Below are positions 15 to 14,090 of a stretch of DNA of 14,417 nt, one piece after another. The first letter of the stretch is position 1, and each line of letters opens with the position of its first letter. The notes beneath the pieces are model-generated. The model was not told the origin of the DNA. It ran no database searches and saw only the letters and a program-made list of their open reading frames with translations. Origin of the DNA: a virus. The stretch lies in UHGV virus genome UHGV-0099904. The stretch is one strand, 5' to 3'. A program made the translations under genes and the position numbers.

Positions 15-3000
15 ATGAACCTGTTAATCACCTCAGTGGATGGTGATAAAACCGCTGGCGCGGCGTCAGTGAATATTGGTGAATTCTACCAGGTAACTAT
101 TCAGCAGCGTAAGGATATTTCTCTTGCACTTAGCGCAGGTAAGAAATATGCAATTGTGCTGAAGGGAAGATACCTCCTTGGAGAAGATTCTTATCAGGTT
201 AATACCGCGTCACATATTCATGCGGCTGAATTTGTTGCCAGAACCTATACCGATTCATATCAGTTAGGAGATGGGGAACTGCTTGTTTGTACGGTGAATA
301 TCCCTGCTGGCGTATCTGCTATTACTAAGGAAATGATAGATGTATCCGACCGCATCGATCTCGCGATAGGCATTGAAATTTCCGACTCTGTAACCAGTAC
401 CAGAAGTGATGTCGCTGCAAGTTCGCTGGCGGTTAAAAAAGCCTACGATCTGGCTAAAAGCAAGTATACGGCGCAGGATGCAAGCACAACACAAAAGGGA
501 TTAGTTCAGCTCAGTAGCGCAACTAACAGCGACAGCGAAACAATGGCGGCTACCCCTAAAGCCGTTAAGTCTGTAAAAGAGCTGGCTGATACCAAAGCGC
601 CAATAGAAAGCCCGAGTCTGACAGGAACGCCAACCGCGCCGACGGCAGCGCAAGGTACAAACAGCACGCAGATCGCAAATACAGCCTTTGTTAAGGCAGC
701 TATAACGGCACTTATCAACGGTGCACCTGGCACACTGGATACGCTTAAAGAAATAGCGGCTGCGATCAATAACGACCCGAATTTCAGCACAACTATCAAC
801 AATGCTCTGGCTCTTAAAGCTCCTTTAGCAAGTCCTGCATTAACGGGAATACCTACTGCGCCTACCGCTGTACAGGGTACGAATAACACGCAGATTGCTA
901 CGACCGCTTATGTAAGAGCTGCTATCTCTGCATTGGTCGGCTCATCACCTGAAGCTCTTGATACCCTGAATGAGCTTGCAGCAGCACTGGGCAATGACCC
1001 GAACTTTGCGACAACAATGACAAATGCGCTGGCAGGCAAACAGCCACTTGATGCAACTTTAACCGCGCTTGCTGGTCTTGCGACAGGCGCAAATAAATTG
1101 CCGTACTTTACCGGTACAGACACTGTTTCTCAGACTGACTTAACGTCAGTCGGTCGCGATATTCTGGCCAAAACAAGCGTTCTTGCTGTTATCCAATACC
1201 TTGGTTTAAGAGAACTCGGTACCAGTGGTGAAAAGATCCCCCTGTTGAGCACGGCTAACACATGGAGTGCGCGCCAGACTTTCAACGGAGGGATCACCGG
1301 GGCGCTGACAGGGAACGCCGACACCGCGACGAAATTGAAAACAGCACGCACGATTGGCGGTGTGGCATTTGATGGCTCGGGCAATATCAATCTTCCAGGT
1401 GTAAATATAACAGGTAACCAGAACACCACGGGGAATGCTGCTACCGCGACAAAACTTGCGACGGTAAGAAACATCAACGGTGTTAAGTTTGATGGTTCTG
1501 CGGACATTTCGATACCAACAATTACGTCCAGAGGGCGTGTTACTGCGCTCACCGGTACAACACAAGGTGCTGCTACTGGATTGCAGATGTATGAGGCGTA
1601 CAACAATAGCTACCCGACCACGTATGGCAACGTATTGCACATGAAAGGTGCGAGTGCTGCTGGTGAGGGCGAGTTGCTTATTGGCTGGAGTAGTACGAGC
1701 GGTGCACATGCGCCGGTTTTCATTCGCTCCCGAAGAGATCACACTGATGCGGCATGGTCAGCGTGGGCGCAGGTATATACATCAAGGGACTCCATTCCTG
1801 GTGTGAATGCCACTGGCAATCAGAATACAACTGGCAATGCAGCAACCGCTACAAAACTACAGACGGCAAGAACTATCGGCGGAGTTAGCTTTGATGGTAC
1901 TGCGAATATTAATTTACCTGGTGTTAACGTTGCGGGTAATCAGAATACATCCGGTAACGCGGCTACAGCGACCAAGTTACAAACCGCGAGAACTATAAAT
2001 GGGGTGTCGTTTGACGGTTCTAAAAACATTGAGCTAACTCCAAGGTCTATAGGCACGATCAACTCTACAACCATGTCTTTTATTGGTGGTGCAGGATGGT
2101 TCAAGCTGGCAACTGTAACCATGCCACAGGCCAGTTCCGTGGTTTACATAAGTCTGATTGGTAGTTCTGGATATAATGTTAACTCCCCTATGCAGGCTGG
2201 TATATCTGAACTTGTTCTTCGTGCGGGAAATGGGAATCCAAAAGGTCTTACTGGTGCGTTATGGCGACGGACATCGGTTGGATTTACTAATTTTGCATGG
2301 GTGAATACATCCGGTGATACCTATGATGTTTATGTTGAAATAGGTAATTACGCCACTGGTGTAAATATCCAGTGGGATTATACCAGTAACGCCAGCGTAA
2401 CGATTCATACATCACCAAATTACACAGTAGATAAACCAACTGGTCTTACTGATGGAACGGTATATGTCATTTACAGTTCGCACATTAAACCGACCGCCAC
2501 GGATGTCGGCGCATTACCAATAACCGGAGGAAATCTCAACGGCGGTTTAACGGCTACTGGTGAGATCGTTTCAAGATATGCAAATGGTTTCCGCATTGCC
2601 TATGGAAGCTACGGATTCTTTATCCGAAACGATGGTTCAAACACATATTTCATGTTGACCAATTCGGGTAACAGCCTGGGAACCTATAATAATTTAAGGC
2701 CGCTTATCATTAACAATGCCAATGGTACTGTTACGATCGGTAATGGGCTCAATGTTACTGGCGGCATCAATGGTAGTTTGAACGGCAATGCTTCAACGGC
2801 TACGAAGTTGCAAACTGCTAGAAAAATAAGCGGCGTGTCTTTTGATGGTTCTGCTGATATAACACTAACAGCTGAAAATGTATCTGCTTTTGCTCTACGC
2901 GCTACTGGAACTTATGCCGATACTAGTGGTGCGGTCCCGTGGAATGCCGAATCAGGTGCGTATAATGTTACACGCTCCGGGGATTCTTATATCGTTGCAA

Positions 3001-4034
3001 ATTTTTATACAGGCGTAGGTAGTTGTCGGACTCTCCAAATCCGAGCGCACCATAAAAATGGTGGATTGTATTACCGTTCATCACGTGATGGCTATGGGTT
3101 CGAAGAGGGCTGGGCTCAGATATATACTAAAAAAGACAGCATCCCTGGTGTGAATACAACTGGTAATCAGAACACTACTGGCAATGCTGCAACTGCAACA
3201 AAACTGCAAACAGCACGCACAATAGGCGGAGTGTCATTCGATGGTAGTGCCAATATCGACCTGCCGGGCGTGAATAAAGCAGGTAATCAGAGCACTACCG
3301 GTAATGCCGCAACCGCAACGAAACTACAGACTGCACGCACTATCAACGGTGTTCAGTTTGATGGTTCTGCAAATATTACTTTAACTGCTGCTAACCTTGG
3401 CCTGAGCGATTCAAGCGGATATGTTGGGCGTTTGGTGAATACCCGGGTTTTCACTTCATCAGGTACGTATACCCCAACCCCAGGAACAAAACGGATCAGG
3501 GTCACAATAACGGGCGGCGGTGGCGGAGGGGGCGGCTGCAAGGCTATATCCAATAATGAAACGTTTTTCGGTGCTGGCGGCGGGGCAGGTGGGACAGTAA
3601 TCACCACGCTGATCCTGACGAAGGATAGTTATCCTGTCACTATCGGCGCAGGTGGGGCCGGCGGCGTTAGTGCGACGACCGGCCTCAAGGGCGGTGATAG
3701 CTCGTTCGGATCGGTAATAGCCCCTGGTGGTGAAGGTGGCGGGAAAGTGGGAGTTACAAACACAAACGGCGGTAACGGCGGTGTGCCAAGTACTGGCGGT
3801 ATCAACATCATTGGTGGACATGGAGGCGACGGTCAGTCCGGAAATATCGGCGTCAGCGGTGAAGGCGGAACATCGTACTGGGGGGGCGGTGGACGCGCAG
3901 GCGCTGGCGGTGGTGTTAGTGGTAAGGCATATGGTTCAGGTGGCGGTGGCGCATACGATGCCGGTTATAGCGGAACCAGTATGACGGGCGGGAAAGGTGC
4001 TGCTGGGATTTGTATTATCGAGGAGTTTGCATAA
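15..4034 (+). CDS. Phage tail fiber protein, 1339 aa; the frame has no upstream stop before the window edge, so the true N-terminus may lie upstream
   Basis: Single 4 kb ORF. Translation shows hallmark tail fiber motifs: KGLVQLSSATNSDSETMAATPKAVK near aa 160-185, PTAPTA..GTN.TQIA.TA(F/Y)V shaft repeats, repeated GNQNTTGNAATATKLQTARTIGGVSFDGSANI units, and a Gly-rich C-terminus. A tail fiber assembly gene follows with a TAATG stop/start overlap. Confidence 0.9.
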   Translation: MNLLITSVDGDKTAGAASVNIGEFYQVTIQQRKDISLALSAGKKYAIVLKGRYLLGEDSYQVNTASHIHAAEFVARTYTDSYQLGDGELLVCTVNIPAGVSAITKEMIDVSDRIDLAIGIEISDSVTSTRSDVAASSLAVKKAYDLAKSKYTAQDASTTQKGLVQLSSATNSDSETMAATPKAVKSVKELADTKAPIESPSLTGTPTAPTAAQGTNSTQIANTAFVKAAITALINGAPGTLDTLKEIAAAINNDPNFSTTINNALALKAPLASPALTGIPTAPTAVQGTNNTQIATTAYVRAAISALVGSSPEALDTLNELAAALGNDPNFATTMTNALAGKQPLDATLTALAGLATGANKLPYFTGTDTVSQTDLTSVGRDILAKTSVLAVIQYLGLRELGTSGEKIPLLSTANTWSARQTFNGGITGALTGNADTATKLKTARTIGGVAFDGSGNINLPGVNITGNQNTTGNAATATKLATVRNINGVKFDGSADISIPTITSRGRVTALTGTTQGAATGLQMYEAYNNSYPTTYGNVLHMKGASAAGEGELLIGWSSTSGAHAPVFIRSRRDHTDAAWSAWAQVYTSRDSIPGVNATGNQNTTGNAATATKLQTARTIGGVSFDGTANINLPGVNVAGNQNTSGNAATATKLQTARTINGVSFDGSKNIELTPRSIGTINSTTMSFIGGAGWFKLATVTMPQASSVVYISLIGSSGYNVNSPMQAGISELVLRAGNGNPKGLTGALWRRTSVGFTNFAWVNTSGDTYDVYVEIGNYATGVNIQWDYTSNASVTIHTSPNYTVDKPTGLTDGTVYVIYSSHIKPTATDVGALPITGGNLNGGLTATGEIVSRYANGFRIAYGSYGFFIRNDGSNTYFMLTNSGNSLGTYNNLRPLIINNANGTVTIGNGLNVTGGINGSLNGNASTATKLQTARKISGVSFDGSADITLTAENVSAFALRATGTYADTSGAVPWNAESGAYNVTRSGDSYIVANFYTGVGSCRTLQIRAHHKNGGLYYRSSRDGYGFEEGWAQIYTKKDSIPGVNTTGNQNTTGNAATATKLQTARTIGGVSFDGSANIDLPGVNKAGNQSTTGNAATATKLQTARTINGVQFDGSANITLTAANLGLSDSSGYVGRLVNTRVFTSSGTYTPTPGTKRIRVTITGGGGGGGGCKAISNNETFFGAGGGAGGTVITTLILTKDSYPVTIGAGGAGGVSATTGLKGGDSSFGSVIAPGGEGGGKVGVTNTNGGNGGVPSTGGINIIGGHGGDGQSGNIGVSGEGGTSYWGGGGRAGAGGGVSGKAYGSGGGGAYDAGYSGTSMTGGKGAAGICIIEEFA
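597..1040 (+). repeat. Tandem duplication of a ~74-aa shaft module inside the tail fiber gene (aa 195-268 and 269-342)
   Basis: APIESPSLTGTPTAPTAAQGTNSTQIANTAFVKAAITALINGAPGTLDTLKEIAAAINNDPNFSTTINNALALK versus APLASPALTGIPTAPTAVQGTNNTQIATTAYVRAAISALVGSSPEALDTLNELAAALGNDPNFATTMTNALAGK. The protein copies are clearly related while the DNA differs at many codon third positions. Confidence 0.8.
1299..1514 (+). repeat. First pair of ~40-aa TATKL fiber repeats (aa 429-500)
   Basis: TGNADTATKLKTARTIGGVAFDGSGNINLPGVN followed by ITGNQNTTGNAATATKLATVRNINGVKFDGSADISIP. Confidence 0.8.
1791..2036 (+). repeat. Second pair of TATKL fiber repeats (aa 593-674)
   Basis: IPGVNATGNQNTTGNAATATKLQTARTIGGVSFDGTANINLPGVNVAGNQNTSGNAATATKLQTARTINGVSFDGSKNIEL. 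Confidence 0.8.
3141..3383 (+). repeat. Third pair of TATKL fiber repeats (aa 1043-1123); a single copy also lies at about 2769-2867
   Basis: IPGVNTTGNQNTTGNAATATKLQTARTIGGVSFDGSANIDLPGVNKAGNQSTTGNAATATKLQTARTINGVQFDGSANITL. Near-identical in protein to the 1791-2036 copy, with many synonymous DNA differences. Confidence 0.8.
3492..4031 (+). repeat. Glycine-rich C-terminal tip domain of the tail fiber (aa ~1160-1339); GGN-rich low-complexity DNA
   Basis: Runs GGGGGGGG, GAGGGAGG, GAGGAGG, PGGEGGG, GGNGG, GGHGGDG, GEGG, GGGGRAGAGGG and GSGGGG alternate with short non-Gly segments. Includes a G7 homopolymer at 3880-3886. Confidence 0.75.
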
Positions 4035-4444
4035 TGAATGCGTCATATGCAGTTATTGAAAATGGGATGGTTGTGAATGTCATTGTCTGGGATGGCGAGG
4101 CTGAATTCACAGTGCCGGATAATCAGCAGCTCATTAATATTTCTGATATCAGTGAGCAGCCCGGAATCGGCTGGGTGTATTCAGACGGGGGATTTACTGC
4201 ACCACCCACTCCGGAACGTTCTCATGATGAACTGGTAGCTGACGCTGAACAGAAAAAACAGTCGCTGATTGATACCGCAATGGCTTCCATTAGTCTTATT
4301 CAACTGAAATTACAGGCCGGGCGGAATCTTACGCAGGCTGAAACCACCCGTCTTAACGCTGTGCTGGATTATATCGATGCGGTGACCGCAATGGATACCA
4401 GCACTGCACCAGATGTCAATTGGCCAGCGTTCCCGGAGGCGTAG
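4034..4444 (+). CDS. tfa: Tail fiber assembly protein (lambda Tfa / P1 U-like chaperone)
   Basis: C-terminal DTSTAPDVNWPAFPEA closely matches the lambda Tfa C-terminus as I recall it (DTSTAPDIEWPAVP). AGGAG at 4021-4025 sits 8 nt before the ATG at 4034, which overlaps the fiber TAA. The ORF-track start at 4010 is a TTG and is less likely. Confidence 0.9.
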   Translation: MNASYAVIENGMVVNVIVWDGEAEFTVPDNQQLINISDISEQPGIGWVYSDGGFTAPPTPERSHDELVADAEQKKQSLIDTAMASISLIQLKLQAGRNLTQAETTRLNAVLDYIDAVTAMDTSTAPDVNWPAFPEA

Positions 4445-4588
4445 TCCATTTAATAAAATATCTGGATCGCTGGAAGCATCGACTGGTTCCAGTGCGTCCG
4501 GATAATCGAGCTACAAGTTATCAGATGATTACCGTTCATGCCTCAAGAGTGAGCGCATGCTGCACCCACGCAAATTTAACTTTCATAC

Positions 4589-4642
4589 GACCAGAGTTTA
4601 CCTATCAAAAGCCTTTTTCACTCTGGTCGTTCAGCCTTTTTT
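4589..4642 (+). terminator. Candidate terminator or operator: 9-bp perfect inverted repeat GACCAGAGT/ACTCTGGTC with a 22-nt spacer, followed by a T6 run
   Basis: Arms at 4589-4597 and 4620-4628; TTTTTT at 4637-4642. It lies about 145 nt after the tfa stop. The loop is long for a classical intrinsic terminator. Confidence 0.3.
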
Positions 4643-4724
4643 CCACTCGCCTTGTCCTCAAAAATTAGCTCACATCCTGCGCTTTCAAGAGCGTTTCGTT
4701 GTAAAGCAGTGTTTTGTTCATTTG

Positions 4725-4752
4725 TTGATACGCGTACATAGCCTATTAGCAT
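4725..4752 (+). promoter_or_regulatory. Weak sigma70-like promoter candidate (TTGATA, 16-nt spacer, TAGCAT) in the AT-rich spacer upstream of the lyd/dar block
   Basis: Hexamers read directly from sequence in a 435-bp noncoding AT-rich region that precedes a long co-directional operon. A phage late-activator-dependent promoter is equally possible and I cannot place it by eye. Confidence 0.2.
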
Positions 4753-4879
4753 ATTTTCTGCTCACTATCGTTATTTATAGCAAGCTGCGGATTTTAATTA
4801 ACAAAAACCAGTATGTGTGGAAATCACAAAGTACATACCGTTTCCCAATGATATTTAATTCACTATTAAGGAAATAGTT

Positions 4880-5161
4880 ATGTGTGATTTCACAATAATG
4901 CTCCTCTCCATCCTTGGCGGGGTGCATTCGTTTCTGAATGGGGTTCGTGAAAAACGTTACGAAGCGTCATGCAGGCAATTGATGGCCGAGTGTATTGCTG
5001 CCGTACTTGCAGGCTTTATAGGCATGTATTTCGCGGAATATAAGGGTATGGATGAAAGTCTTCAGAATTGCGTGACTATTATTTGCAGCATCAATAACAG
5101 GCTCATTCTTGAAAAGTTACAAAGGATTATCGATTCGTACCTCAATAGAAATGCCTCTTAA
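4880..5161 (+). CDS. Small two-TM membrane protein, holin-like; paralog of the downstream LydA-like gene
   Basis: AAGGA at about 4868-4872 sits 8 nt before the ATG. Hydrophobic segments at aa 5-20 and 33-51. Aligns with the 5229-5558 product (LLSILGGVHSFLNGVRE versus LLSVIGGIGTFLMDVRD, with shared AV.AG, I.S.N and S.LN positions). Confidence 0.55.
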   Translation: MCDFTIMLLSILGGVHSFLNGVREKRYEASCRQLMAECIAAVLAGFIGMYFAEYKGMDESLQNCVTIICSINNRLILEKLQRIIDSYLNRNAS

Positions 5162-5202
5162 GCAACAAATGACCGGTTGAGAAGTTACTTTGCATACCAT
5201 TA

Positions 5203-5222
5203 CCTCCTGACAACGTAGGAGG
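5203..5222 (+). promoter_or_regulatory. Stem-loop CCTCCT-gacaacgt-AGGAGG that pairs the Shine-Dalgarno of the following holin gene with an upstream anti-SD
   Basis: 6-bp perfect complement; the AGGAGG arm at 5217-5222 is the only SD for the GTG start at 5229. Confidence 0.3.
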
Positions 5223-5228
5223 GAACTT

Positions 5229-5558
5229 GTGCTTGACACACAGGAATTAGCTCCAGTTGCTATTGCGCTCCTGCTTTCAGTAATTGGTGGGATAGGCACG
5301 TTCCTGATGGATGTCCGAGACGGTCGCCAGTCTGGCAATTTGTTGGGATTGGTTACGGAGATCTTTGTTGCAGTGACAGCTGGCGCGGTGGCGTACCTAT
5401 TGGGGCAACACGAGGGCTGGGAGTTATCAATTACGTACTTAATGGTAACGATAGCCAGCAATAACGGTCATGAGGTGATTTCAGGGATGAAACGAGTGAA
5501 TATCGATAGCATTCTGAATGTTCTTACAAGTTTGGTGAAAAAGGGAGGCGGGAAATGA
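5229..5558 (+). CDS. lydA: Holin (P1 LydA-like), 109 aa, GTG start
   Basis: Two to three hydrophobic helices (APVAIALLLSVIGGIGTFLM, LLGLVTEIFVAVTAGAVAYLLG) and a charged C-terminal tail (KKGGGK). It sits immediately upstream of the dar-like block, as lydA does in P1. Its stop overlaps the next start (ATGA). Confidence 0.55.
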   Translation: MLDTQELAPVAIALLLSVIGGIGTFLMDVRDGRQSGNLLGLVTEIFVAVTAGAVAYLLGQHEGWELSITYLMVTIASNNGHEVISGMKRVNIDSILNVLTSLVKKGGGK

Positions 5559-5998
5559 TTGGCTGGGGTGTATGCGTTCTTGCGTTAGCCTTAGCCGATC
5601 GCTATTTGCTAAAACGCAAGGACATCACGCATTTAGAACTTGGTGATGTGGAAATTAAACCGGGTTTCATCCGGGTGCCGTTCAAGTACCGGTCTAAATT
5701 CCCGTTTTTGCGCGGCGCAACGGTCAGATATTGGATCCGCGATGTTCAGAAGCCGACGACAGTGATTGAAGGTGAACAACGTTGTCTGACGTCGGCTGAA
5801 CAGGGCGAAAACAGTGAATGGTTGTACATACCCACTGAATATATGGGTAAAGGAGAGCGACTGTGGCATTTCAACGTCATGGTTACGCATGGCGACTCGT
5901 TCATTAACCCGTTGTATCGGATTTTCCCTGTTACTCAGCAAATCCGCAGAAGTTACGTAATAAATCTCGCACAGGATGTGTCAGATGACGAAAAATAA
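5555..5998 (+). CDS. lydB: Signal-anchored protein, 147 aa; candidate holin antagonist (P1 LydB-like)
   Basis: AGGGAGG precedes the ATG. N-terminal hydrophobic segment MIGWGVCVLALALA. Position between the holin and the hdf/darA block matches P1 gene order as I recall it. Function is inferred from synteny only. Confidence 0.45.
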   Translation: MIGWGVCVLALALADRYLLKRKDITHLELGDVEIKPGFIRVPFKYRSKFPFLRGATVRYWIRDVQKPTTVIEGEQRCLTSAEQGENSEWLYIPTEYMGKGERLWHFNVMVTHGDSFINPLYRIFPVTQQIRRSYVINLAQDVSDDEK

Positions 5999-6587
5999 GT
6001 ATGCAACGGTCGATTTTGACCAGGTTAATGAAAAGGGGCTGAAATCCCTTATCGCGGCGATCAATAAAACCGGTGTTACGGTAATTGAGGTTGACTCCAG
6101 CAACCGCGCAACAACGAAAGATGGCGTTAAAGTTAAAACCGCAAAGCTGGTTCTTAACGACGGACAAATTCTTGCCATACAGGTAAACGATACTGGCGAT
6201 ATATCGTCTGTGAAACTGAATGGAAAAGCTATTCCTAACGCTCAGTCGCCGGATATCAAGACGCTTGGTACCGTCATGGGACAGGCGGCCCGCAAAAACT
6301 CCGCAAAATTCCAGAAATCACTGATCGCCAAAGCGAAGCGTGTTGCCAATCCGGTAGACAAGAAACCGGCAGTTAAATCCAACTTTCAGCGCCTGCAAGA
6401 AGCAAAACAGCGGAATGCTCAGGTGGTTGCCGCTTATAAGTCCGCGCAGAATTCGGTGTCTTTCAATCAACAGCAGATCACTGATTTGCGGGCGAAGCTG
6501 GATAAGGAGACGGGCCGACTCAATAACGAAAAGGCACGGAATGGCGAACTCAAACGTCGTCTTAAGCAACTGAAAGCAGGAAATTAA
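5976..6587 (+). CDS. hdf: Hdf-like virion/head-morphogenesis protein, homologous to the middle of the downstream DarA-like protein; the start may be the second ATG at 5985
   Basis: Shares LNDGQILAIQ / LSDGQTISIL and ...KNSAKFQ... segments with the 6589-8508 product, followed by a K/R/Q-rich predicted coiled coil. The stop is 1 nt before the next ATG. Confidence 0.55.
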   Translation: MCQMTKNKYATVDFDQVNEKGLKSLIAAINKTGVTVIEVDSSNRATTKDGVKVKTAKLVLNDGQILAIQVNDTGDISSVKLNGKAIPNAQSPDIKTLGTVMGQAARKNSAKFQKSLIAKAKRVANPVDKKPAVKSNFQRLQEAKQRNAQVVAAYKSAQNSVSFNQQQITDLRAKLDKETGRLNNEKARNGELKRRLKQLKAGN

Positions 6588-6588
6588 C

Positions 6589-8508
6589 ATGGAACAGTTA
6601 AATATCAATAAAGGGGTGACGATCAAGCCTGGGCTTGACGTGCTTCCCCCGCCAGTGACTGATGATGAATATCGCGCATTAATGGCCGGTGAGGACCGCT
6701 ATCTGATGACGGAATCCAACACCCTGGAGGAAATCGAGGCTACGTTCTTCTATGACACGCCGATCCACTGGTGTGCTACGGATTTACTGGAGGCGATTAG
6801 TTCTACTCGTTTGCAGTTACACCGGACCATGCAGGCATTTGTCCGGGCATTGAACCAGAAGCTGAATGGTACCGGAATCTCTGCGGGGAGTGATAAAACG
6901 GGGGAGGTGGCCCAGAGCGGCGCGCGCGCGATCGGCGGTGCTGAAATTGGCCGGGCACGTAACGTTAACGGGCTGCCGGTCCTGCCAGCCATTATTCCGC
7001 TCAGTGATGGTCAGACTATCAGCATTCTGTTTCATAGCCCGACAGCGGAAAACCGGATCACCAATAGCGATACGCTGGTTGCTTTCCAGTTCTTACTGAA
7101 TAAAAAAGACGTTACTCACACCGTTGCTCCGATGAGTGGACGTGATATGACGCTGGCGCAGGTCACCATGAAACTTGCCAACCTTGCAGAGAAAAACTCG
7201 GCAAAATTCCAGCGTGCGCAGAAGAAGAAAAAAGCCCTGGTTGATGAAATAACCCAACTACAGGCTGACAGTGACCAGAAAGAGGATGCCATGAGCGACC
7301 TCGCGGATCAGGTGGCAGCGGTAGAAGGGCAGAAGGTAGATCTGGAGCAGAAAATTAACGCTGTTGCATCGGAAGCGGATTCTCTTTATGAAGAGAATGA
7401 GCGTTTGCAGACGGAGATTGATCAGCTCAATCGCACAGGTGGGCGCGATACCATTGATCCAGCGGGGATGACTGGTGGGCACTCGCGCGCGCTGACGGAT
7501 CGCCTTGCCAGTATCAAAAATCGTATGCATATGAACGGGGAAGTGACGCTCAGTAATGGAGCATCAATGAAGCAATTCATTGAGGACGGCGAAGGGTATA
7601 TCCAGTTAACCGATTCGGATGGCAGCGTGTACATGATCAAGGCTAAATCCATACAGGGTGTGGACATGGCAGATGCGATCGGCAAGCTGTTTAAAGCCTA
7701 TAAAGCGGGTAATGTATCGGAATATCTGGTCCAACCAGAAGAACATAAACCGGAAAACGTCGAACCTGAACCAGCGGAGGATACCGGTAGCTCTTCGCCT
7801 GAACCAGAAGTCTCTGTAGGTGCATATCGATATGCCTTGCAAATGCGTCCGGCGGCCCCTGGCGCAATACCTGAAGGTAACAAAGCAATTCTGCCGCGCC
7901 CTGATGAAGGTGACCCGTATTATGAATATGCACGCTACGGCATTGCTACTTACGATACCCCGCTTTCTGATCAGCAAATGAGTGAGTACGACCTGAAGTT
8001 ATTGCCTCGCGAGGATTCTTTCGACTTCCTGGCGAAGACACTTACTAATGGTCCGTTTGGCAAATATGCACAAAAAGCTCTGGATCTGGCCACCAGCTCA
8101 CCAGACGAGTTCCGCGTAATGCTGAAAACTCAGTTTCAAAAAACTTTCCCCAATATTGCGTTTCCGGGGGGCGCTGGCACCGAGAAAATGGTGCAGAGCA
8201 TGATCAATGCATTGCAGGCCGAAGTCGGTGAGATTACTCAGCCAGAACCTGCCCCGGCACAGCCTGATGAAACGGTTAGCGAAGCAGATGCAGAGGCTAA
8301 TAAAGCCATTGAATATCTCAATAACGTGATGGATATGCAAAGCACTGACATGGCGGAGATCCGTAACGCCCGGGGTAATGTCCGGGAAGCGATTGCAGCC
8401 CTTCAGGCTGCCGGGCGTTTTGAGGAAAACGAAGAGCTGGTTAATGGCGCTGCTCGCCACCTGGCTGATCTGCTGGTAGCAATCCAGAAAGCGGGGGTAG
8501 CGGCATGA
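6589..8508 (+). CDS. darA: DarA-like antirestriction and capsid morphogenesis virion protein, 639 aa
   Basis: AGGAAA RBS. Large protein with a central coiled coil (QLQADSDQKEDAMSDLADQVAAVEGQKVDLEQKINAV...) and acidic Pro/Glu-rich linkers. Size and position (hdf, 639-aa protein, 121-aa protein, 995-aa protein) match my recollection of the P1 darA operon. ATGA overlap with the next gene. Confidence 0.6.
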   Translation: MEQLNINKGVTIKPGLDVLPPPVTDDEYRALMAGEDRYLMTESNTLEEIEATFFYDTPIHWCATDLLEAISSTRLQLHRTMQAFVRALNQKLNGTGISAGSDKTGEVAQSGARAIGGAEIGRARNVNGLPVLPAIIPLSDGQTISILFHSPTAENRITNSDTLVAFQFLLNKKDVTHTVAPMSGRDMTLAQVTMKLANLAEKNSAKFQRAQKKKKALVDEITQLQADSDQKEDAMSDLADQVAAVEGQKVDLEQKINAVASEADSLYEENERLQTEIDQLNRTGGRDTIDPAGMTGGHSRALTDRLASIKNRMHMNGEVTLSNGASMKQFIEDGEGYIQLTDSDGSVYMIKAKSIQGVDMADAIGKLFKAYKAGNVSEYLVQPEEHKPENVEPEPAEDTGSSSPEPEVSVGAYRYALQMRPAAPGAIPEGNKAILPRPDEGDPYYEYARYGIATYDTPLSDQQMSEYDLKLLPREDSFDFLAKTLTNGPFGKYAQKALDLATSSPDEFRVMLKTQFQKTFPNIAFPGGAGTEKMVQSMINALQAEVGEITQPEPAPAQPDETVSEADAEANKAIEYLNNVMDMQSTDMAEIRNARGNVREAIAALQAAGRFEENEELVNGAARHLADLLVAIQKAGVAA

Positions 8509-8870
8509 CACTATCAGCTATTGAGTTAATGGATCTCAGCGATAAGTTGGATGCTCTGATGTCCAAAGCGGCTACCGCGAGTGGCATGGAGTTGCTGGAT
8601 ATCAGCGATGAAATTGACCAGATCATGCAACAGATGGGGTACGGTGTGTCCGGCGGCAGTAGTGGCGAGGAAAAACAACCTGCGGTACATGATGGTGTGC
8701 CAAAACTGGTTGCTGATTTCCTGGCTGATAAATTCGTCGATCAGAGCACCGATGCATTTATCGGTACCTTGCAGGATTTGAGTCAATATGTTGGCACATA
8801 CATCGACCTGGACCAGGTTAAACAGCACACGGCGGCATGGATAGCCGCCAACATTAAAGAGGCAGCATAA
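8505..8870 (+). CDS. ddrA: DdrA-like small acidic protein, 121 aa
   Basis: Translationally coupled to the upstream gene (ATGA). Acidic, predicted helical. Named by position in the dar-like operon only. Confidence 0.5.
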   Translation: MTLSAIELMDLSDKLDALMSKAATASGMELLDISDEIDQIMQQMGYGVSGGSSGEEKQPAVHDGVPKLVADFLADKFVDQSTDAFIGTLQDLSQYVGTYIDLDQVKQHTAAWIAANIKEAA

Positions 8871-8882
8871 GGCGTAACAGGG

Positions 8883-11870
8883 ATGAGCTTAAGCGATCAG
8901 GTGGTGATGGCCACCAGCATAGAAACGCTGATCGAGCTGCTAAAAAACCTGCCCGATTACGGGCGGGTTTCGTATGTGGTGACAGCGAAGGGAGACGAGG
9001 TAAAAACAGCGTTTGATATCGTCGATGCCTCAGCTCTTTTGGTATCCAATACTCTGGACGGGAAAATTAATCCAGACTATCCCCAGGAACTTCAGCCGCG
9101 CGACCGGACCCGCGCATCCAGCCTTCTTCAGGTCAACCAGATATCCAAGGATTTGCGTCCTGCCCAGCTTACCGATTCCGGTTTATCCAGCCATGGCGCG
9201 CCAATAATTGGTGAGGACAATGCCGTTGAGTCAGGTAATGGGCGGACCATGGGGATCATCAAAGCCTATCAGGACGGTAATGCGGATCGGTATCGGGAGT
9301 ACCTGATTGAACATGCGACCGAATTCGGCATACGGCCTGAAAAGGTTGAATCAATGACGGCTCCGGTACTGGTGCGCCGCCGGTTAACGAAGGTTGACCG
9401 TGTTCAGTTTGCCAAGGACTCAAATATTTCTGATCTCCAGGAAATGGCAGCCAGTGAAAAGGCTTTTGTTGATGCCGACAGCATAACACCGGCGATGATG
9501 GCGTTGTTTAACCCGTCAGAAAGCGGAGATCTGCTTAGCCGCAGTAATGACGCGTTTATTCGCGGATTCATGACGCAAGTTGGTGCCACACAGGCTGCTG
9601 GCCTTGTAACGGAAGATGGGCGACCAACACGGCAACTTGTAGACCGTATACAAAACGCGATCTTTGCCAAGGCATATAAGGATGCGCGCCTGGTAAGGAT
9701 GGTTGCAGAAGAACCTGATCCGGATATGCGTAATGTTCTGACGGCGCTTAATGCGGCAGCCAATGATTTTGTCCAGATGCAGGCTTTATCAGGAGAAGCG
9801 CACAAGCAGGCTGTGACAACTATTGTTGATGGCATTGAGACAGCGGATAGCCTCGATAAAAAGGCGCTGGCGGCATTGAAAGATGCGGTAGACCTGGTAA
9901 GGCAATCGAAGGAGTCAGGCCAGCATATTACCGATGTTATTGCTCAGGGGGATATGTTCAGCGAAACGGCCCCGGAAGTGAAAGCACTCGCGTTGTTCAT
10001 CGTCGCGAATAACCGTAGCGCGAAGCGTATGGCCACCGCCTTTAAGTTGATGGCTCAACGTATCAATGATGAGTTACAGCACCAGGGCCAGGCGCTGGGG
10101 GATATGTTTGGCGGCGGCGATGTGTCGTTACAGGATATCCTTCGCCAGGTGTCTCAGGAACTGGAATACGAAGGCATGCAAGGGATATCCGGCGGTCTTT
10201 TCGAGTCCGTTTCCGGCGGTAGTTACAACGGTGTTGCTCCGTATACCAGTTTGCTATTACATCGGGCATCCGGCATCAAAGACATTATTCATCTGATCAG
10301 GCTGCTTTCCCGCACAGATCACCAGGATGAACAGCTTGTACAAGTGCTTGCGCATTTTGTTCGAATGCCTGTTGCCGAAGTGAAAAAATGGTGCCGATTA
10401 TTCGGTATCAGCAATTCGTTACTTCGCGGCTTGTTAAATCACGCATCCTCCCTTGGGCGCGATGGCTTTGACGAGATAGCGCAGGCGATAAAAAACGGAG
10501 ATATGCCACCAGCTATTGACTGGTTTTCCATTCGCCCAACCAGGGTGAAAGCATTCCTTAGCGCGGCGCATTCGGCATCACCATTGGCAGAAATGGTTCA
10601 GAGGTTGTCGCTCATATTCACAGACCATACCGCGTTGGGTGATCTGACTCTGGACGAGATGAAAGAAGCCTCCATTCAGTGGGCCGATCAACAAAATGAG
10701 GTTAACTCAGACTTCTTGCCAGCATTCAGGAAGGCCGTTAGTAAAGCGGATGATGCCCGTGGAATTCTGAAGGCATTTAAGGCATTGCAAAGTCGGGTTA
10801 ATAAACATGTCGGTGATATCGATGGGGTAACGGCGGAAGGCAGGGATATCCTTAAAGAGCACGGCATAACGCCAGAGTTTATTGATGAGATCAGGACGGA
10901 TATGCAGCGTGAGGTCGTATCGTCCCTGCAAATTGTAGCCAGAGCGTTGGCGGATGCTAATCCGAAGAGTGCGGCCATTGTTAACCGGGTTATTGGTGAT
11001 ATTGAAGCATCGGAGGGCATGGGGGCGCTGAAACTCTTCCTTTCGCGAGCGTTTAATCCTAACGGCAATATTCTCCCTGGCATTATTGGTGAGGCTAAAA
11101 AGTATGTCAGTGAAGAAGAACTTGAGCAGCTTGACCAACTACTTAAGCGATTCTCATATAACCCGCAGACACGCTGGCAAATGAATCAGCGAGGTATGGG
11201 TTCGGTCCACGAGAAAGTGTTATCTGCCATGAACAGTGCGATCGCAAACTCATCCGTATCTGAAGAAAAAGCTCTTGAGTGGGCCGACTCTTTTATCACG
11301 GAAGAAGTGGAAGAAGCCCGCGCTGGACAGAATGGTGGGATAGACCTGCGCAAGGAACTTGCTGATATTTATCGCCTGACCGGCGGGAAAATATCGACCT
11401 TATCAAAGGTGGTTCACCACCAGGGAAGGGCATATGCAAATCTTAATGGTGTTGTTGCTGTCAATTTGAACGATGAAAATGCAAGTGCACTGTGGCACGA
11501 GCTGGGTCATCATCTTGAGTACAGTAACCCTGGTTTGTTAGAGAAAGCCCGGTCATTCCTGAAGGCCAATGTTGAAGGGGATAAGCCATCTTTCGTTAAT
11601 ATCGGTGGGCGTGGCAAGCCTGAATGGTGCTTCAGATCTCGATTGAGTAATATTTATATGGCGAAGGTATACCCGCCAGCCTCAGTAAGTAACACCGGGA
11701 AAATTCGGCAGAAATCCCCGACTATTTCCAAAACGTCAGCAACGGAAGTATTCTCTATGGCTCTTCAGTTGTATCATGACAAAGAGGCCGCTGCCGCATC
11801 ACTGATGAATGGTGACGGATTGCTGGAACTGTTATTAGGTGTGGCAAAGGAGCTAAATAATGCAGATTAA
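8883..11870 (+). CDS. ddrB: DdrB-like large virion protein, 995 aa, with a zincin HExxH motif and a possible ParB-like N-terminal domain
   Basis: Uninterrupted 3 kb ORF. HELGH at nt 11496-11510 (WHELGHHLE, aa 872-876). N-terminal segment VESGNGRTMGIIKAY resembles the ParB/Srx G-x-x-R signature. Operon position and length fit P1 DdrB as I recall it. Confidence 0.65.
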   Translation: MSLSDQVVMATSIETLIELLKNLPDYGRVSYVVTAKGDEVKTAFDIVDASALLVSNTLDGKINPDYPQELQPRDRTRASSLLQVNQISKDLRPAQLTDSGLSSHGAPIIGEDNAVESGNGRTMGIIKAYQDGNADRYREYLIEHATEFGIRPEKVESMTAPVLVRRRLTKVDRVQFAKDSNISDLQEMAASEKAFVDADSITPAMMALFNPSESGDLLSRSNDAFIRGFMTQVGATQAAGLVTEDGRPTRQLVDRIQNAIFAKAYKDARLVRMVAEEPDPDMRNVLTALNAAANDFVQMQALSGEAHKQAVTTIVDGIETADSLDKKALAALKDAVDLVRQSKESGQHITDVIAQGDMFSETAPEVKALALFIVANNRSAKRMATAFKLMAQRINDELQHQGQALGDMFGGGDVSLQDILRQVSQELEYEGMQGISGGLFESVSGGSYNGVAPYTSLLLHRASGIKDIIHLIRLLSRTDHQDEQLVQVLAHFVRMPVAEVKKWCRLFGISNSLLRGLLNHASSLGRDGFDEIAQAIKNGDMPPAIDWFSIRPTRVKAFLSAAHSASPLAEMVQRLSLIFTDHTALGDLTLDEMKEASIQWADQQNEVNSDFLPAFRKAVSKADDARGILKAFKALQSRVNKHVGDIDGVTAEGRDILKEHGITPEFIDEIRTDMQREVVSSLQIVARALADANPKSAAIVNRVIGDIEASEGMGALKLFLSRAFNPNGNILPGIIGEAKKYVSEEELEQLDQLLKRFSYNPQTRWQMNQRGMGSVHEKVLSAMNSAIANSSVSEEKALEWADSFITEEVEEARAGQNGGIDLRKELADIYRLTGGKISTLSKVVHHQGRAYANLNGVVAVNLNDENASALWHELGHHLEYSNPGLLEKARSFLKANVEGDKPSFVNIGGRGKPEWCFRSRLSNIYMAKVYPPASVSNTGKIRQKSPTISKTSATEVFSMALQLYHDKEAAAASLMNGDGLLELLLGVAKELNNAD

Positions 11871-12177
11871 AATCGCAGCGCCATTAGGCGGAGATGCCAT
11901 TATCGAATTTGATGATAATGAAGAAGTTTCCGGGCGTTTAAGCATTATCTCCGGTGACATTACCGAGGACATGATCGCTGAAGCCATAGCTGGGGCAAAT
12001 CCCAATAGCTATATGGGATTCGTTAACACCCTTGATGCTCTCGCAAGTGATGTTCTCCGAACGCTGCATCTTTACGCTGGCTGGTTTGTTGATTGGCCAG
12101 CAGTAGAGGGTGGCGATGAGGACGACGACGATGACGACGATGATTTTGGGGATCATGTAGACCAGATCGTATATTGA
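11860..12177 (+). CDS. Small, strongly acidic protein, 105 aa, ending in an Asp8 run; candidate DNA-mimic or virion protein
   Basis: Strong AAGGAG RBS 8 nt upstream of the ATG; the start overlaps the ddrB-like stop by 11 nt. About 28 D/E versus about 3 K/R residues. A terminator hairpin follows. Confidence 0.6.
   Translation: MQIKIAAPLGGDAIIEFDDNEEVSGRLSIISGDITEDMIAEAIAGANPNSYMGFVNTLDALASDVLRTLHLYAGWFVDWPAVEGGDEDDDDDDDDFGDHVDQIVY
12121..12144 (+). repeat. (GAY)8 trinucleotide repeat encoding Asp8, inside the acidic run DEDDDDDDDD (12115-12144)
   Basis: gac gac gac gat gac gac gat gat read directly in frame. Confidence 0.9.
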
Positions 12178-12179
12178 AG

Positions 12180-12205
12180 AAATCCCGCCAATCGGCGGGA
12201 TTTTT
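12180..12205. terminator. Hairpin between convergent operons, candidate bidirectional terminator
   Basis: AAATCCCGCC-aatc-GGCGGGATTT (10-bp stem, 4-nt loop) with a 5-T run, three of them inside the stem. It sits 3 nt after the + strand stop and 6 nt after the minus-strand stop. The minus-strand reading has only a weak T-rich tail (TTCTTC). Confidence 0.65.
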
Positions 12206-12208
12206 ACC

Positions 12209-13303
12209 TCACGAGAAGCTTTTTTCTGATGTCAGCCAACAGTGCTCGTGCAAATCTCTTGGTGGTTTTTCGACAAATGCCTCTTCAGCCACATCCTGCC
12301 AGGGGATTTGTTTAGCCCATTCAGCTATAGCGTTATGGTTTGCCGAGAATAACGGTATTGTATAGGCCTTCAGCCAGTCTAATGTGCTGGAGTTGTGTTT
12401 TTGAGCGTGATGTTTCGCATGGTGTTTGGCGATCACGATCGTAGGCACTACCCATTTACTACCGTCAGTCATTGTGAAGTGCATATTACGGGGAACAGAT
12501 GACTTTTCCATCAACTCCCGAATCCCGGGAAATTTCCCCAAGATCAATCGGCGATATTCATCGCTATTGCGCCCACCAAACTCTTTGGCTTTGAATTCAA
12601 GATATGCTTCAGAAACGAGAGGTGAATCCTCTGTGTTTAGAGTTAGCGCCGTGAAAAAACCAGCAGGATTGTTTTTACTATGGGCCAACCGGTGATGCGA
12701 ATCATAAAAGTACCCTTTCTCGCGTTCCGATGGTTTCGACAGCAACAGCAGGCGCGAGTCATAATTGGTTAAATTGCCAGTTATCACTGCATGAGCGCGA
12801 TCGCTGATTTCCGCCGAGTTAATAACGATGAAAAGATCGTGCGGTCCAGTAAAACCAGCCAGAGACTCTTCGTTATTCAGACAATAGGTTATATAGACGC
12901 ATCCCCATGTTTCACTGATATGCACCAACCCTTTGTCAGGGTGTATTCTGAAATAATTGCCAAGAAAAGGGTGTTTTTGGGTAACTCGCTCCCAATAACG
13001 GAACATATAGTCAATTATTGTTTTTCGACTATCGTTAATCGCAGGAGAAACAACCACTGTACGGGAACACGAATACAGTATTGTTTGCAGGATGCTAATC
13101 ACTGCCACAATAGAGGTTTCCCCAATACCATGTGGTGTGGTGGCAGTGACTTTGGCTCCGGTGTTCTTTATCGCGTTAATAATTTTTGCTTGATGAGGTG
13201 TTAACTCAATATCAAGCAACTCTTTTGCTGCCAGTTCCCAATTGTCTTTATACCGTTCTATCAGTGCTAACCAGGCAGATTCATTCTGTATACGATTAAT
13301 CAC
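12209..13303 (-). CDS. Terminase-large-subunit-like ATPase-fold protein with degenerate Walker A and B motifs, 364 aa
   Basis: LTPHQAKIINAIKNTGAKVTATTPHGIGETSIVAVISIL...RTVVVSPAINDSRKTI...DLFIVINSAEIS parallels the T4 gp17-type N-terminal ATPase (YQ..., RQLGKTTVVA..., IYIDECAF) as I recall it, but with GETS in place of GKT and NSAE in place of DE. Overlaps the upstream gene by 8 nt. Confidence 0.55.
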   Translation of the reverse strand: MINRIQNESAWLALIERYKDNWELAAKELLDIELTPHQAKIINAIKNTGAKVTATTPHGIGETSIVAVISILQTILYSCSRTVVVSPAINDSRKTIIDYMFRYWERVTQKHPFLGNYFRIHPDKGLVHISETWGCVYITYCLNNEESLAGFTGPHDLFIVINSAEISDRAHAVITGNLTNYDSRLLLLSKPSEREKGYFYDSHHRLAHSKNNPAGFFTALTLNTEDSPLVSEAYLEFKAKEFGGRNSDEYRRLILGKFPGIRELMEKSSVPRNMHFTMTDGSKWVVPTIVIAKHHAKHHAQKHNSSTLDWLKAYTIPLFSANHNAIAEWAKQIPWQDVAEEAFVEKPPRDLHEHCWLTSEKSFS

Positions 13304-14090
13304 TTTCCACCTCTTCCGTGGTGTTTTCTTGCAGTTCTGTTAATGCAGCACGACATAGGTTCCGGGCATTGGCTATAGCCACACTTTTGACTTCATCCGT
13401 CATCGTGCAGGTAATGTACTGATCGAGTTCTTCAGCGCGGATGATGCTTTTGCCAATCAGAAACTGTATTTGCCAGAGCAGATCGGCATCCATAATCAGA
13501 ATTTCTGCCGGGCCTTCAGGACCAGCCGGGAAGGAAACATAAGACTGTTTGCCCAGGCCGATAACTCGACAACTTGCTTCAAGAATTGCGCGATTGAGGT
13601 CTGACTTTGTAACTGAAACAGGTTGATTTTCACCTGCGATTACGCCGTTGACATGGATGTGGAATGGCATGTAGCTTGAAATTCGCTCTACTTTCCATAC
13701 GCCAGCAAGCGATCCTTCATGCAGCACAATGGGGGTAACCGCGAGTTTCATCTCACCATATAACTGCTGGCAGATAGCTGGATTGCTGAATACATCCAAA
13801 GGTTCACACTCAAACAGCGGCGCAATCTGTATGAGGTCCATCATGGTCATACCAGGGGTACGAGCAGTAATGAATCTGCGCATGCCAGTATCCATTGTGC
13901 GCCAGATAGCTACACCATGCTTTTTGCTCACTTCTTCAGTAAAGCCAAGGTGGCACATGATGGTTTTTTCGATAGCCAGATCAGAGATAGAAACCTTTTC
14001 GCCAGGTACACCATCATTATTGATGGTCACTTCTACACTCTGGCCATTACGCAGGCGGTATTGAATGGTTTTAGTATTTTGTGCTGTCAT
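13296..14090 (-). CDS. Hypothetical protein, 264 aa, co-transcribed with the terminase-like gene
   Basis: Long ORF with a plausible weak RBS (GAGAAAAGA) before the ATG. Ends inside the start of the next gene. I see no recognisable motifs. Confidence 0.55.
   Translation of the reverse strand: MTAQNTKTIQYRLRNGQSVEVTINNDGVPGEKVSISDLAIEKTIMCHLGFTEEVSKKHGVAIWRTMDTGMRRFITARTPGMTMMDLIQIAPLFECEPLDVFSNPAICQQLYGEMKLAVTPIVLHEGSLAGVWKVERISSYMPFHIHVNGVIAGENQPVSVTKSDLNRAILEASCRVIGLGKQSYVSFPAGPEGPAEILIMDADLLWQIQFLIGKSIIRAEELDQYITCTMTDEVKSVAIANARNLCRAALTELQENTTEEVESD

Follow-up and report, generated by a model that had tools for sequence, protein, structure and literature searches.

The segment at positions 5182-12205 of the window, meaning the whole 14.4-kb stretch of DNA analysed here, is almost certainly the late darA operon of an Enterobacteriaceae P1-like phage-plasmid, a predicted gene-for-gene ortholog of the P1 operon, from which its function is taken. 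For P1, it is textbook knowledge which genes make up this operon, in what order they stand, that the dar products are located in the virion and that they act against type I restriction. The dar operon found here is an already known system, which an earlier sequence-only reading, made from the DNA letters without database searches, had identified correctly; it adds little that is new, and the annotation of P1 can be carried over to the window.

Identity of the operon with that of P1

Between positions 5976 and 12177, five plus-strand open reading frames encode proteins of 203, 639, 121, 995 and 105 aa, at the place and approximately the sizes given by the sequence-only reading for a translationally coupled, five-gene hdf-darA-ddrA-ddrB-like set. 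As that reading also stated, they follow lydA/lydB-like genes, here a LydA-type holin gene and lydB directly upstream (Table 1). The junctions between these genes are short: lydB and hdf overlap by 23 nt, hdf and darA are 1 nt apart, darA and ddrA overlap by 4 nt (ATGA), ddrA and ddrB are 12 nt apart, and ddrB and hxr overlap by 11 nt. From hdf to hxr, this tight spacing is compatible with translational coupling, which it falls short of proving.

In a megablast comparison with phage records, the interval 5976-12177 aligned with positions 24246-30436 of P1 (NC_005856) at 98.0% nucleotide identity over 6200 nt, far more than chance would produce, and 19 P1-type genomes, including P1, P7, SJ46, RCS47, JL22 and phi456, covered at least 99% of this interval at identities of 98.0-98.7%. 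With BLASTN, a single alignment to P1 extends from window position 4548 to 12175, with 97.9% identity and 4 gap openings. In P1, the matched stretch is annotated with lydC, LPdar, lydA and lydB, then hdf, darA, ddrA, ddrB and hxr, together with iddB, which lies antisense and internal to ddrB. Here the order lydA-lydB-hdf-darA-ddrA-ddrB-hxr is found on one strand and is collinear with P1. The gene order and sizes given in the sequence-only reading for the P1 darA operon are therefore borne out, with orthologs of Hdf, DarA, DdrA and DdrB whose similarity to the P1 proteins, the comparison which that reading had proposed as a check, is close to complete (Table 1). Its five-gene set holds for the first four members; the fifth is hxr, whose product is not known to belong to the Dar system.

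Proteins encoded by the dar operon are 95-100% identical to those of P1, and internal stops or frameshifts were found in none of the genes. Codons that differ from P1 divide into 18 synonymous and 15 nonsynonymous in darA, 9 and 6 in ddrA, and 29 and 14 in ddrB; this lean toward synonymous codons fits purifying selection, as most single-base changes are nonsynonymous. Nucleotide differences from P1 are highest at 7240-7639 and 8640-8839. Compared with the P1 darA operon (NC_005856 24244-31230, AJ000741), the genes, their order, sizes and overlaps and the late promoter are alike, and the difference amounts to about 50 amino-acid substitutions in total and three fewer Asp residues in the run of P1 Hxr. 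Every feature that defines the P1 darA operon at sequence level and could be tested within the window was found. Judged by sequence, in which nothing speaks against orthology, this is that very operon rather than a mere look-alike. The genes darB, ulx, capsid gene 23, pro and lpa fall outside the window. In P1, darB and ulx sit elsewhere in the genome, unlinked to the dar operon.

The predicted late promoter LPdar, AAGTTACTTTGCATACCAT, matches the LPdar annotated in P1 at 19 of 19 positions, and there is no difference from P1 in the 70 nt that begin upstream of this promoter and run through the GTG start codon of lydA. At sequence level, the promoter is thus as expected for an operon that LPdar would drive through the P1 late activator Lpa. 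In P1, lydC forms a monocistronic operon ahead of the dar operon, and the late dar operon also bears the LydA/LydB holin-antiholin pair (PMC9025707).

Table 1. Predicted features of the window, with positions, strand and main attributes.
Feature	Position	Strand	Attributes
Chimeric S-type tail fibre, 1339 aa	15-4034	+	P1 N-terminus, foreign distal part
Lambda-gpK-type assembly chaperone	4010-4444		Follows fibre gene
cin invertase remnant	4548-4752	-	Stop after codon 44; left edge of P1-homologous block
lydC	4880-5161	+	Accessory holin, own upstream unit; 92/93 aa as P1 LydC; Pfam Phage_holin_3_3
LPdar late promoter (-22 box, -10 box)	5182-5200	+	Lpa-dependent in P1
lydA	5229-5558	+	Holin, first dar-operon gene; 109/109 aa as P1 LydA; Pfam Phage_holin_3_3
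lydB	5555-5998	+	Antiholin (LydA antagonist); 145/147 aa as P1 LydB; Pfam LydB, E 8e-104
hdf	5976-6587	+	DarA_N-domain head protein, DarA partner; 201/203 aa identical to P1 Hdf
darA	6589-8508	+	Internal head protein, head-size determinant, Dar anchor; 624/639 aa identical to P1 DarA
ddrA	8505-8870	+	Small acidic Dar component; 115/121 aa identical to P1 DdrA
ddrB	8883-11870	+	Polyvalent head protein; 981/995 aa identical to P1 DdrB
DdrB-type ParB domain	8988-9383 (aa 36-167)	+	N-terminal in DdrB; Pfam ddrB-ParB (PF18763), E 2e-39
Zincin-type HELGH motif of DdrB	11496-11510 (aa 872-876)	+	C-terminal in DdrB
hxr	11860-12177	+	Last operon gene; 98/102 aa as P1 Hxr; DDD insertion in poly-Asp run
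GC-rich hairpin with T run	12178-12205	.	Between convergent hxr and PacB-like genes
PacB (large terminase) ATPase-domain paralog, 364 aa	12209-13303	-	Variable slot past hxr; outside Dar system

Flanking modules and related elements

Homology to P1 ends at 12175, at the stop codon of hxr, and returns at 13295, and non-P1 DNA lies on both sides of the 4548-12175 block, in line with the mosaic P1-like element suggested by the sequence-only reading. That reading had also described the tail fibre as non-P1, which is true of the distal two thirds of the gene, whereas nt 1-1345 share about 95% identity with the constant segment of P1 S. The P1-like N-terminus of the fibre is followed by a non-P1 shaft and then by a glycine-rich tip, with Pfam matches to Phage_fiber_2, Gp34_trimer and a C-terminal Gly_rich_2. 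In PLSDB, the best match to the distal fibre reached about 93.5% identity at 90% coverage, and none was better.

The invertible Cin/cix switch consists of an intact cin and two inverted cix sites, a combination that is not present here. One cix site is left, at 1193-1214, and a search of the window allowing up to 3 mismatches found no second one; nor do the open reading frames of the window include a minus-strand Sv'/U' alternative fibre set. The cin remnant, the single cix site and the missing inverted fibre set together indicate that the host-range switch is frozen, and the decay of cin implies that some gene loss has happened in this element.

On the other side of the operon, the variable slot holds a gene for a 364-aa protein whose residues 11-285 align with residues 11-289 of P1 PacB at 34% identity (E 1e-51). 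This protein lacks the Walker A lysine, the Walker B Asp-Glu pair and the C-terminal nuclease domain that characterize a large terminase: its Walker A motif reads GIGET against GTGKS in PacB, its Walker B motif reads VINSAE against IIDEAS, and the alignment stops at PacB residue 289 of 494, so that the nuclease half is missing. An identification of the gene as an uninterrupted P1 isaB was ruled out (BLASTP E 0.087, no DNA match). A neighbouring 264-aa gene product corresponds to the C-terminal 264 residues of P1 IsaA at 96% identity. Neither the PacB-like nor the IsaA-like protein had a match in PADLOC, NCBIfam or Pfam, and our literature search returned no relevant description of a PacB paralog in P1-like elements.

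The flanks differ from those of P1: upstream, the cin remnant stands where P1 has an intact cin and the invertible C segment, and downstream, the PacB-like gene stands where P1 has isaB and IS1. Across the block, SJ46, phi456, JL22, RCS47, P7 and the 'Punavirus P1' MH422554 share 98.1-98.7% DNA identity with the window. Downstream, MH422554 also shares both the PacB-like and the 264-aa isaA-like gene, but its invertase is intact and its fibre segment invertible. An IS200/IS605-family insertion (insQ), absent here, lies inside the matched stretch in SJ46, RCS47 and vB_EcoM-813R1. The best match to the window as a whole is the E. coli plasmid pIPCEC31_2 (NZ_AP026785), covering 90% of it at 97.1% identity; this plasmid shares the fixed long tail fibre and the genes from lydC through hxr, and in the position of cin it has what is left of a decayed recombinase gene, annotated as a frameshifted, incomplete recombinase; it differs in a distal fibre that is about 91% identical and in the slot past hxr, where a HipA-family YjjJ toxin gene replaces the PacB-like gene. 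The same slot holds genes for a hypothetical protein and a DUF2829 protein in pPK5086-95kb, and an OmpD porin gene in a P7-like mcr-1 plasmid (PMC5786510). The element is one more example of a P1-like phage-plasmid in which a conserved dar block has an exchangeable module on either side, upstream the tail-fibre tip and downstream the cargo slot between hxr and ssb. It belongs to a very common P1-like group, part of the window being matched by 811 PLSDB plasmids and by 1167 of 5426 complete E. coli genomes.

Head proteins, expected mechanism and alternative explanations

The family assignments of the four Dar proteins agree with their P1 counterparts. Hdf carries the Pfam domain DarA_N (PF18788) at aa 13-109 (E 1e-21), falls in phrog_1620, 'Hdf-like antirestriction' (E 5e-80), and matches chain H of PDB 9ukm, P1 Hdf (E 4e-122). 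Translation of hdf more likely begins at the ATG at 5985, for a product of 200 aa, than at 5976: AGGA precedes that ATG by 8 nt, the 200-aa form is the one annotated by PGAP and in MH422554, and alignment with the PHROG profile begins at residue 4. DarA shows DarA_N at aa 66-204 (E 4e-42) and DarA_C (PF18789) at aa 411-472 (E 6e-17), scores 1086.7 bits against the NCBIfam equivalog anti_RE_DarA ('antirestriction phage head protein DarA'; cut-off 350), and matches chain I of 9ukm, P1 DarA, over its full length.

The sequence-only reading had noted that Hdf is homologous to the middle of DarA, with shared NSAKFQ and DGQ.L.I segments. BLASTP aligned Hdf 44-115 with DarA 122-210 at 31% identity (E 0.001), and the homology appears genuine, although it sits in the N-terminal third of DarA, within DarA_N, and not in the middle. 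NSAKFQ does occur in both proteins (at aa 108 of Hdf and aa 203 of DarA), whereas DGQ.L.I is exact in Hdf only (DGQILAI, aa 62), its counterpart in DarA being DGQTISI at aa 140. An in-situ structure of DarA and Hdf was published in 2026.

DdrA falls in phrog_1855, 'DdrA-like anti-restriction protein' (E 1e-57), has a net charge of -13, and had no NCBIfam, Pfam or PADLOC match; 5 of its 6 substitutions relative to P1 are grouped at aa 48-61. DdrB, for which PADLOC gave no match, has the architecture described by Iyer et al. 2017 (PMC5512222), whose domain reading combines ParB with a C-terminal zincin HExxH metallopeptidase domain; here these are represented by the DdrB-type ParB domain and the C-terminal HELGH. 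In DarA, differences from P1 cluster at aa 250-343, and the substitutions at positions 106 and 343 lie inside the loops that in P1 contact the hexon (102-116) and the penton (342-346), respectively (PMC12810830).

Mass spectrometry (LC-MS/MS) of P1 virions identified Hdf, DarA, DdrA, DdrB, DarB and Ulx as head proteins (PMC9024508). By cryo-EM, 55 DarA-Hdf pairs line the inner capsid surface of P1 at penton-hexon junctions, where they contact both capsid and DNA, and they are absent from heads after DNA ejection; residues 1-69 of DarA have no density, as would be expected if the prohead protease cleaves them off (PMC12810830). Deletion of darA or hdf excludes every other Dar protein, and the proportion of normal-size heads falls from about 80% to about 15% (PMC12810830). 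Dar proteins protect solely the DNA packaged in their own virion, in cis, and do so against type I enzymes and BREX (PMC12707154), while hdf, darA, ddrA, ddrB and hxr of P1 are all dispensable for plaque formation (PMC10695390).

By analogy with P1, Lpa would activate LPdar late in the lytic cycle, and LydA and LydB would set the timing of lysis. DarA-Hdf pairs would enter the procapsid early, taking up positions on its inner surface at penton-hexon junctions, and would bias assembly toward normal-size over small heads, after which the prohead protease would remove the DarA N-terminus. Loading of DdrA and DdrB, and of the unlinked DarB and Ulx, would require DarA and Hdf. At infection, the Dar proteins would leave the head with the DNA and shield it in cis from type I restriction, with DarA, Hdf and DdrA expected to act against EcoA-type enzymes and DarB, Ulx and DdrB against EcoB and EcoK.

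An intact operon could also belong to a defective, plasmid-only P1 derivative that makes no virions, in which case no Dar protein would ever be packaged and the genes would be recent, as yet undecayed passengers. The disrupted cin, the lost invertible tail-fibre switch and the fact that just 14.4 kb of the element is visible lend this some plausibility, but we consider it very unlikely, given that the structural and late genes in the window are all intact (the 1339-aa fibre, tfa, lydC, lydA, lydB and the five dar-operon genes), that the late promoter is the same as in P1, and that substitutions lean synonymous. Moreover, the fixed-fibre layout with a cin remnant is found in another complete P1-like plasmid of about 97 kb.

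Less probable still is that, in this lineage, DarA and Hdf act chiefly as a scaffold that sets capsid size and the block has little antirestriction activity, the clustered substitutions reflecting co-adaptation to a different capsid protein and not to host restriction systems. The clusters in DarA and DdrA, the two corresponding peaks of nucleotide difference and the drop in normal-size heads of P1 on loss of DarA or Hdf are what such an explanation would draw on. In P1, however, the same proteins do both jobs, and an identity of 97.7% makes the loss of one of them unlikely; the accessory proteins DdrA and DdrB are intact too.

Hxr and the end of the operon

The last gene, hxr, would be co-transcribed with the dar genes. 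Its product is very acidic, with a net charge of -23 and only 3 Lys and Arg residues in 105 aa, and contains a poly-Asp run that varies in length, with 9 residues here and 6 in P1. It falls in phrog_2292, a family of unknown function, and had no Pfam (even at E<=1), NCBIfam or PADLOC match, hence no HTH match; the charge and this missing HTH match undermine the 'Xre homolog' label given to Hxr in P1. An AlphaFold2 single-sequence model was too poor for a fold search (pLDDT 51.9, pTM 0.33). Hxr is absent from the list of six Dar proteins (PMC12810830), and the P1 virion proteome paper mentions it nowhere in its main text or supplement (PMC9024508). That Hxr is an unpackaged, acidic DNA-mimic-type anti-defence protein made from the late dar transcript, rather than an Xre-like repressor, is a speculative and unlikely reading; if true, the dar operon would supply both injected and newly synthesised counter-defence.

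Just past the end of the P1 homology at 12175 begins a hairpin with a 12-bp stem, whose T run lies inside the 3' arm (Table 1). A simple consensus terminator scan did not list this hairpin 3' of hxr. Folded within 12172-12212, it has a dG of -19.3 kcal/mol and a z of -5.5, and none of 200 shuffled sequences was as stable. This hairpin is likely a bidirectional terminator that closes the operon and is common to hxr and the PacB-like gene.

The PacB-like gene and the variable slot downstream of hxr

The conserved P1-type darA operon (dar block) is bordered on its right by a variable cargo slot, located between hxr, its last gene, and the isaA-like gene (see table). This slot is occupied in P1 by isaB together with IS1, whereas in the genome analyzed here it carries a gene related to pacB, which encodes the P1 large terminase. 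Other P1-like elements present different cargo at the same position: a HipA-family YjjJ toxin in pIPCEC31_2, a hypothetical protein and a DUF2829 protein in pPK5086-95kb, and an OmpD porin in a P7-like mcr-1 plasmid.

The PacB-like protein aligns over residues 11-285 with residues 11-289 of P1 PacB (34% identity, E-value 1e-51) and lacks the nuclease half of PacB. Within the ATPase half, the Walker A motif reads GIGET, compared with GTGKS in PacB, replacing the lysine, and the Walker B motif reads VINSAE, compared with IIDEAS, replacing the Asp-Glu pair. No matches to this protein were obtained in Pfam, NCBIfam or PADLOC. About 120 plasmids of PLSDB contain the gene with an identity of at least 90%, which in 115 cases is at least 95%. 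In phage records, its product is mislabelled as "terminase large subunit". The protein might play a role in packaging interference or act as a decoy.

Features identified in the window, with their coordinates and strand
Feature	Position	Strand	Remarks
cix site	1193-1214		Sole survivor, within the fibre gene
Distal fibre and Caudo_TAP chaperone	1346-4444	+	Non-P1
cin invertase remnant	4548-4752	-	44 codons
Predicted antisense ORF	9404-9835	-	143 aa, inside ddrB; position of annotated P1 iddB
hxr	11860-12177	+	Annotated in P1 as possible Xre-like repressor
Variable cargo slot	12176-13294		Right edge of conserved dar block, hxr to isaA-like gene
PacB ATPase-half paralog	12209-13303	-	364 aa; convergent with hxr; similarity to P1 PacB
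isaA-like ORF	13296-14090	-	264 aa; identity to P1 IsaA

Tail fibre and loss of the invertible switch

Since only a remnant of the invertase gene cin and a single cix recombination site are left, the P1-type invertible host-range switch has been lost, with the fibre fixed in one form. A similarly decayed recombinase is found in pIPCEC31_2. Neither the distal two thirds of the 1,339-aa tail fibre, containing Gp34_trimer and Gly_rich_2 domains, nor its 144-aa chaperone is of P1 origin. The closest PLSDB match to this region reaches only ~93.5% identity at 90% coverage, and patchy likeness is observed to fibres of phages D6, Cyrano and Yersinia phage vB_YpM_5.

Clustered divergence from P1 within the dar block

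Nucleotide differences from P1 are unevenly distributed along the dar block, with clusters at 7240-7639 (16 differences), 8640-8839 (13) and 9240-9439 (9), while the remaining 200-nt bins mostly contain 0-3 and at most 6. The first cluster corresponds to DarA residues ~218-350, where some substitutions lie within or adjoin reported penton-contact loops; in the second, DdrA residues 48-61 account for five of the six DdrA substitutions. These clusters may represent recombination patches or local co-adaptation.

Hxr, the antisense ORF and the isaA-like ORF

The repressor label of Hxr looks unsupported, as neither an HTH nor a match to any other family was found in this protein. Its composition is strongly acidic (26 Asp+Glu against 3 Lys+Arg, net charge -23, pI 4.05), and its poly-Asp run comprises 9 residues, compared with 6 in P1. 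A single-sequence structure model was of too poor quality for use.

The predicted antisense ORF (143 aa, compared with 132 aa for iddB of P1) is conserved because ddrB itself is conserved. Compared with P1 IsaA, the isaA-like product is 96% identical to residues 57-320, and annotations of other P1-like plasmids give this 264-aa form as well; thus, the 320-aa P1 annotation may begin too far upstream, or a 5' change may have occurred in the lineage of the window.
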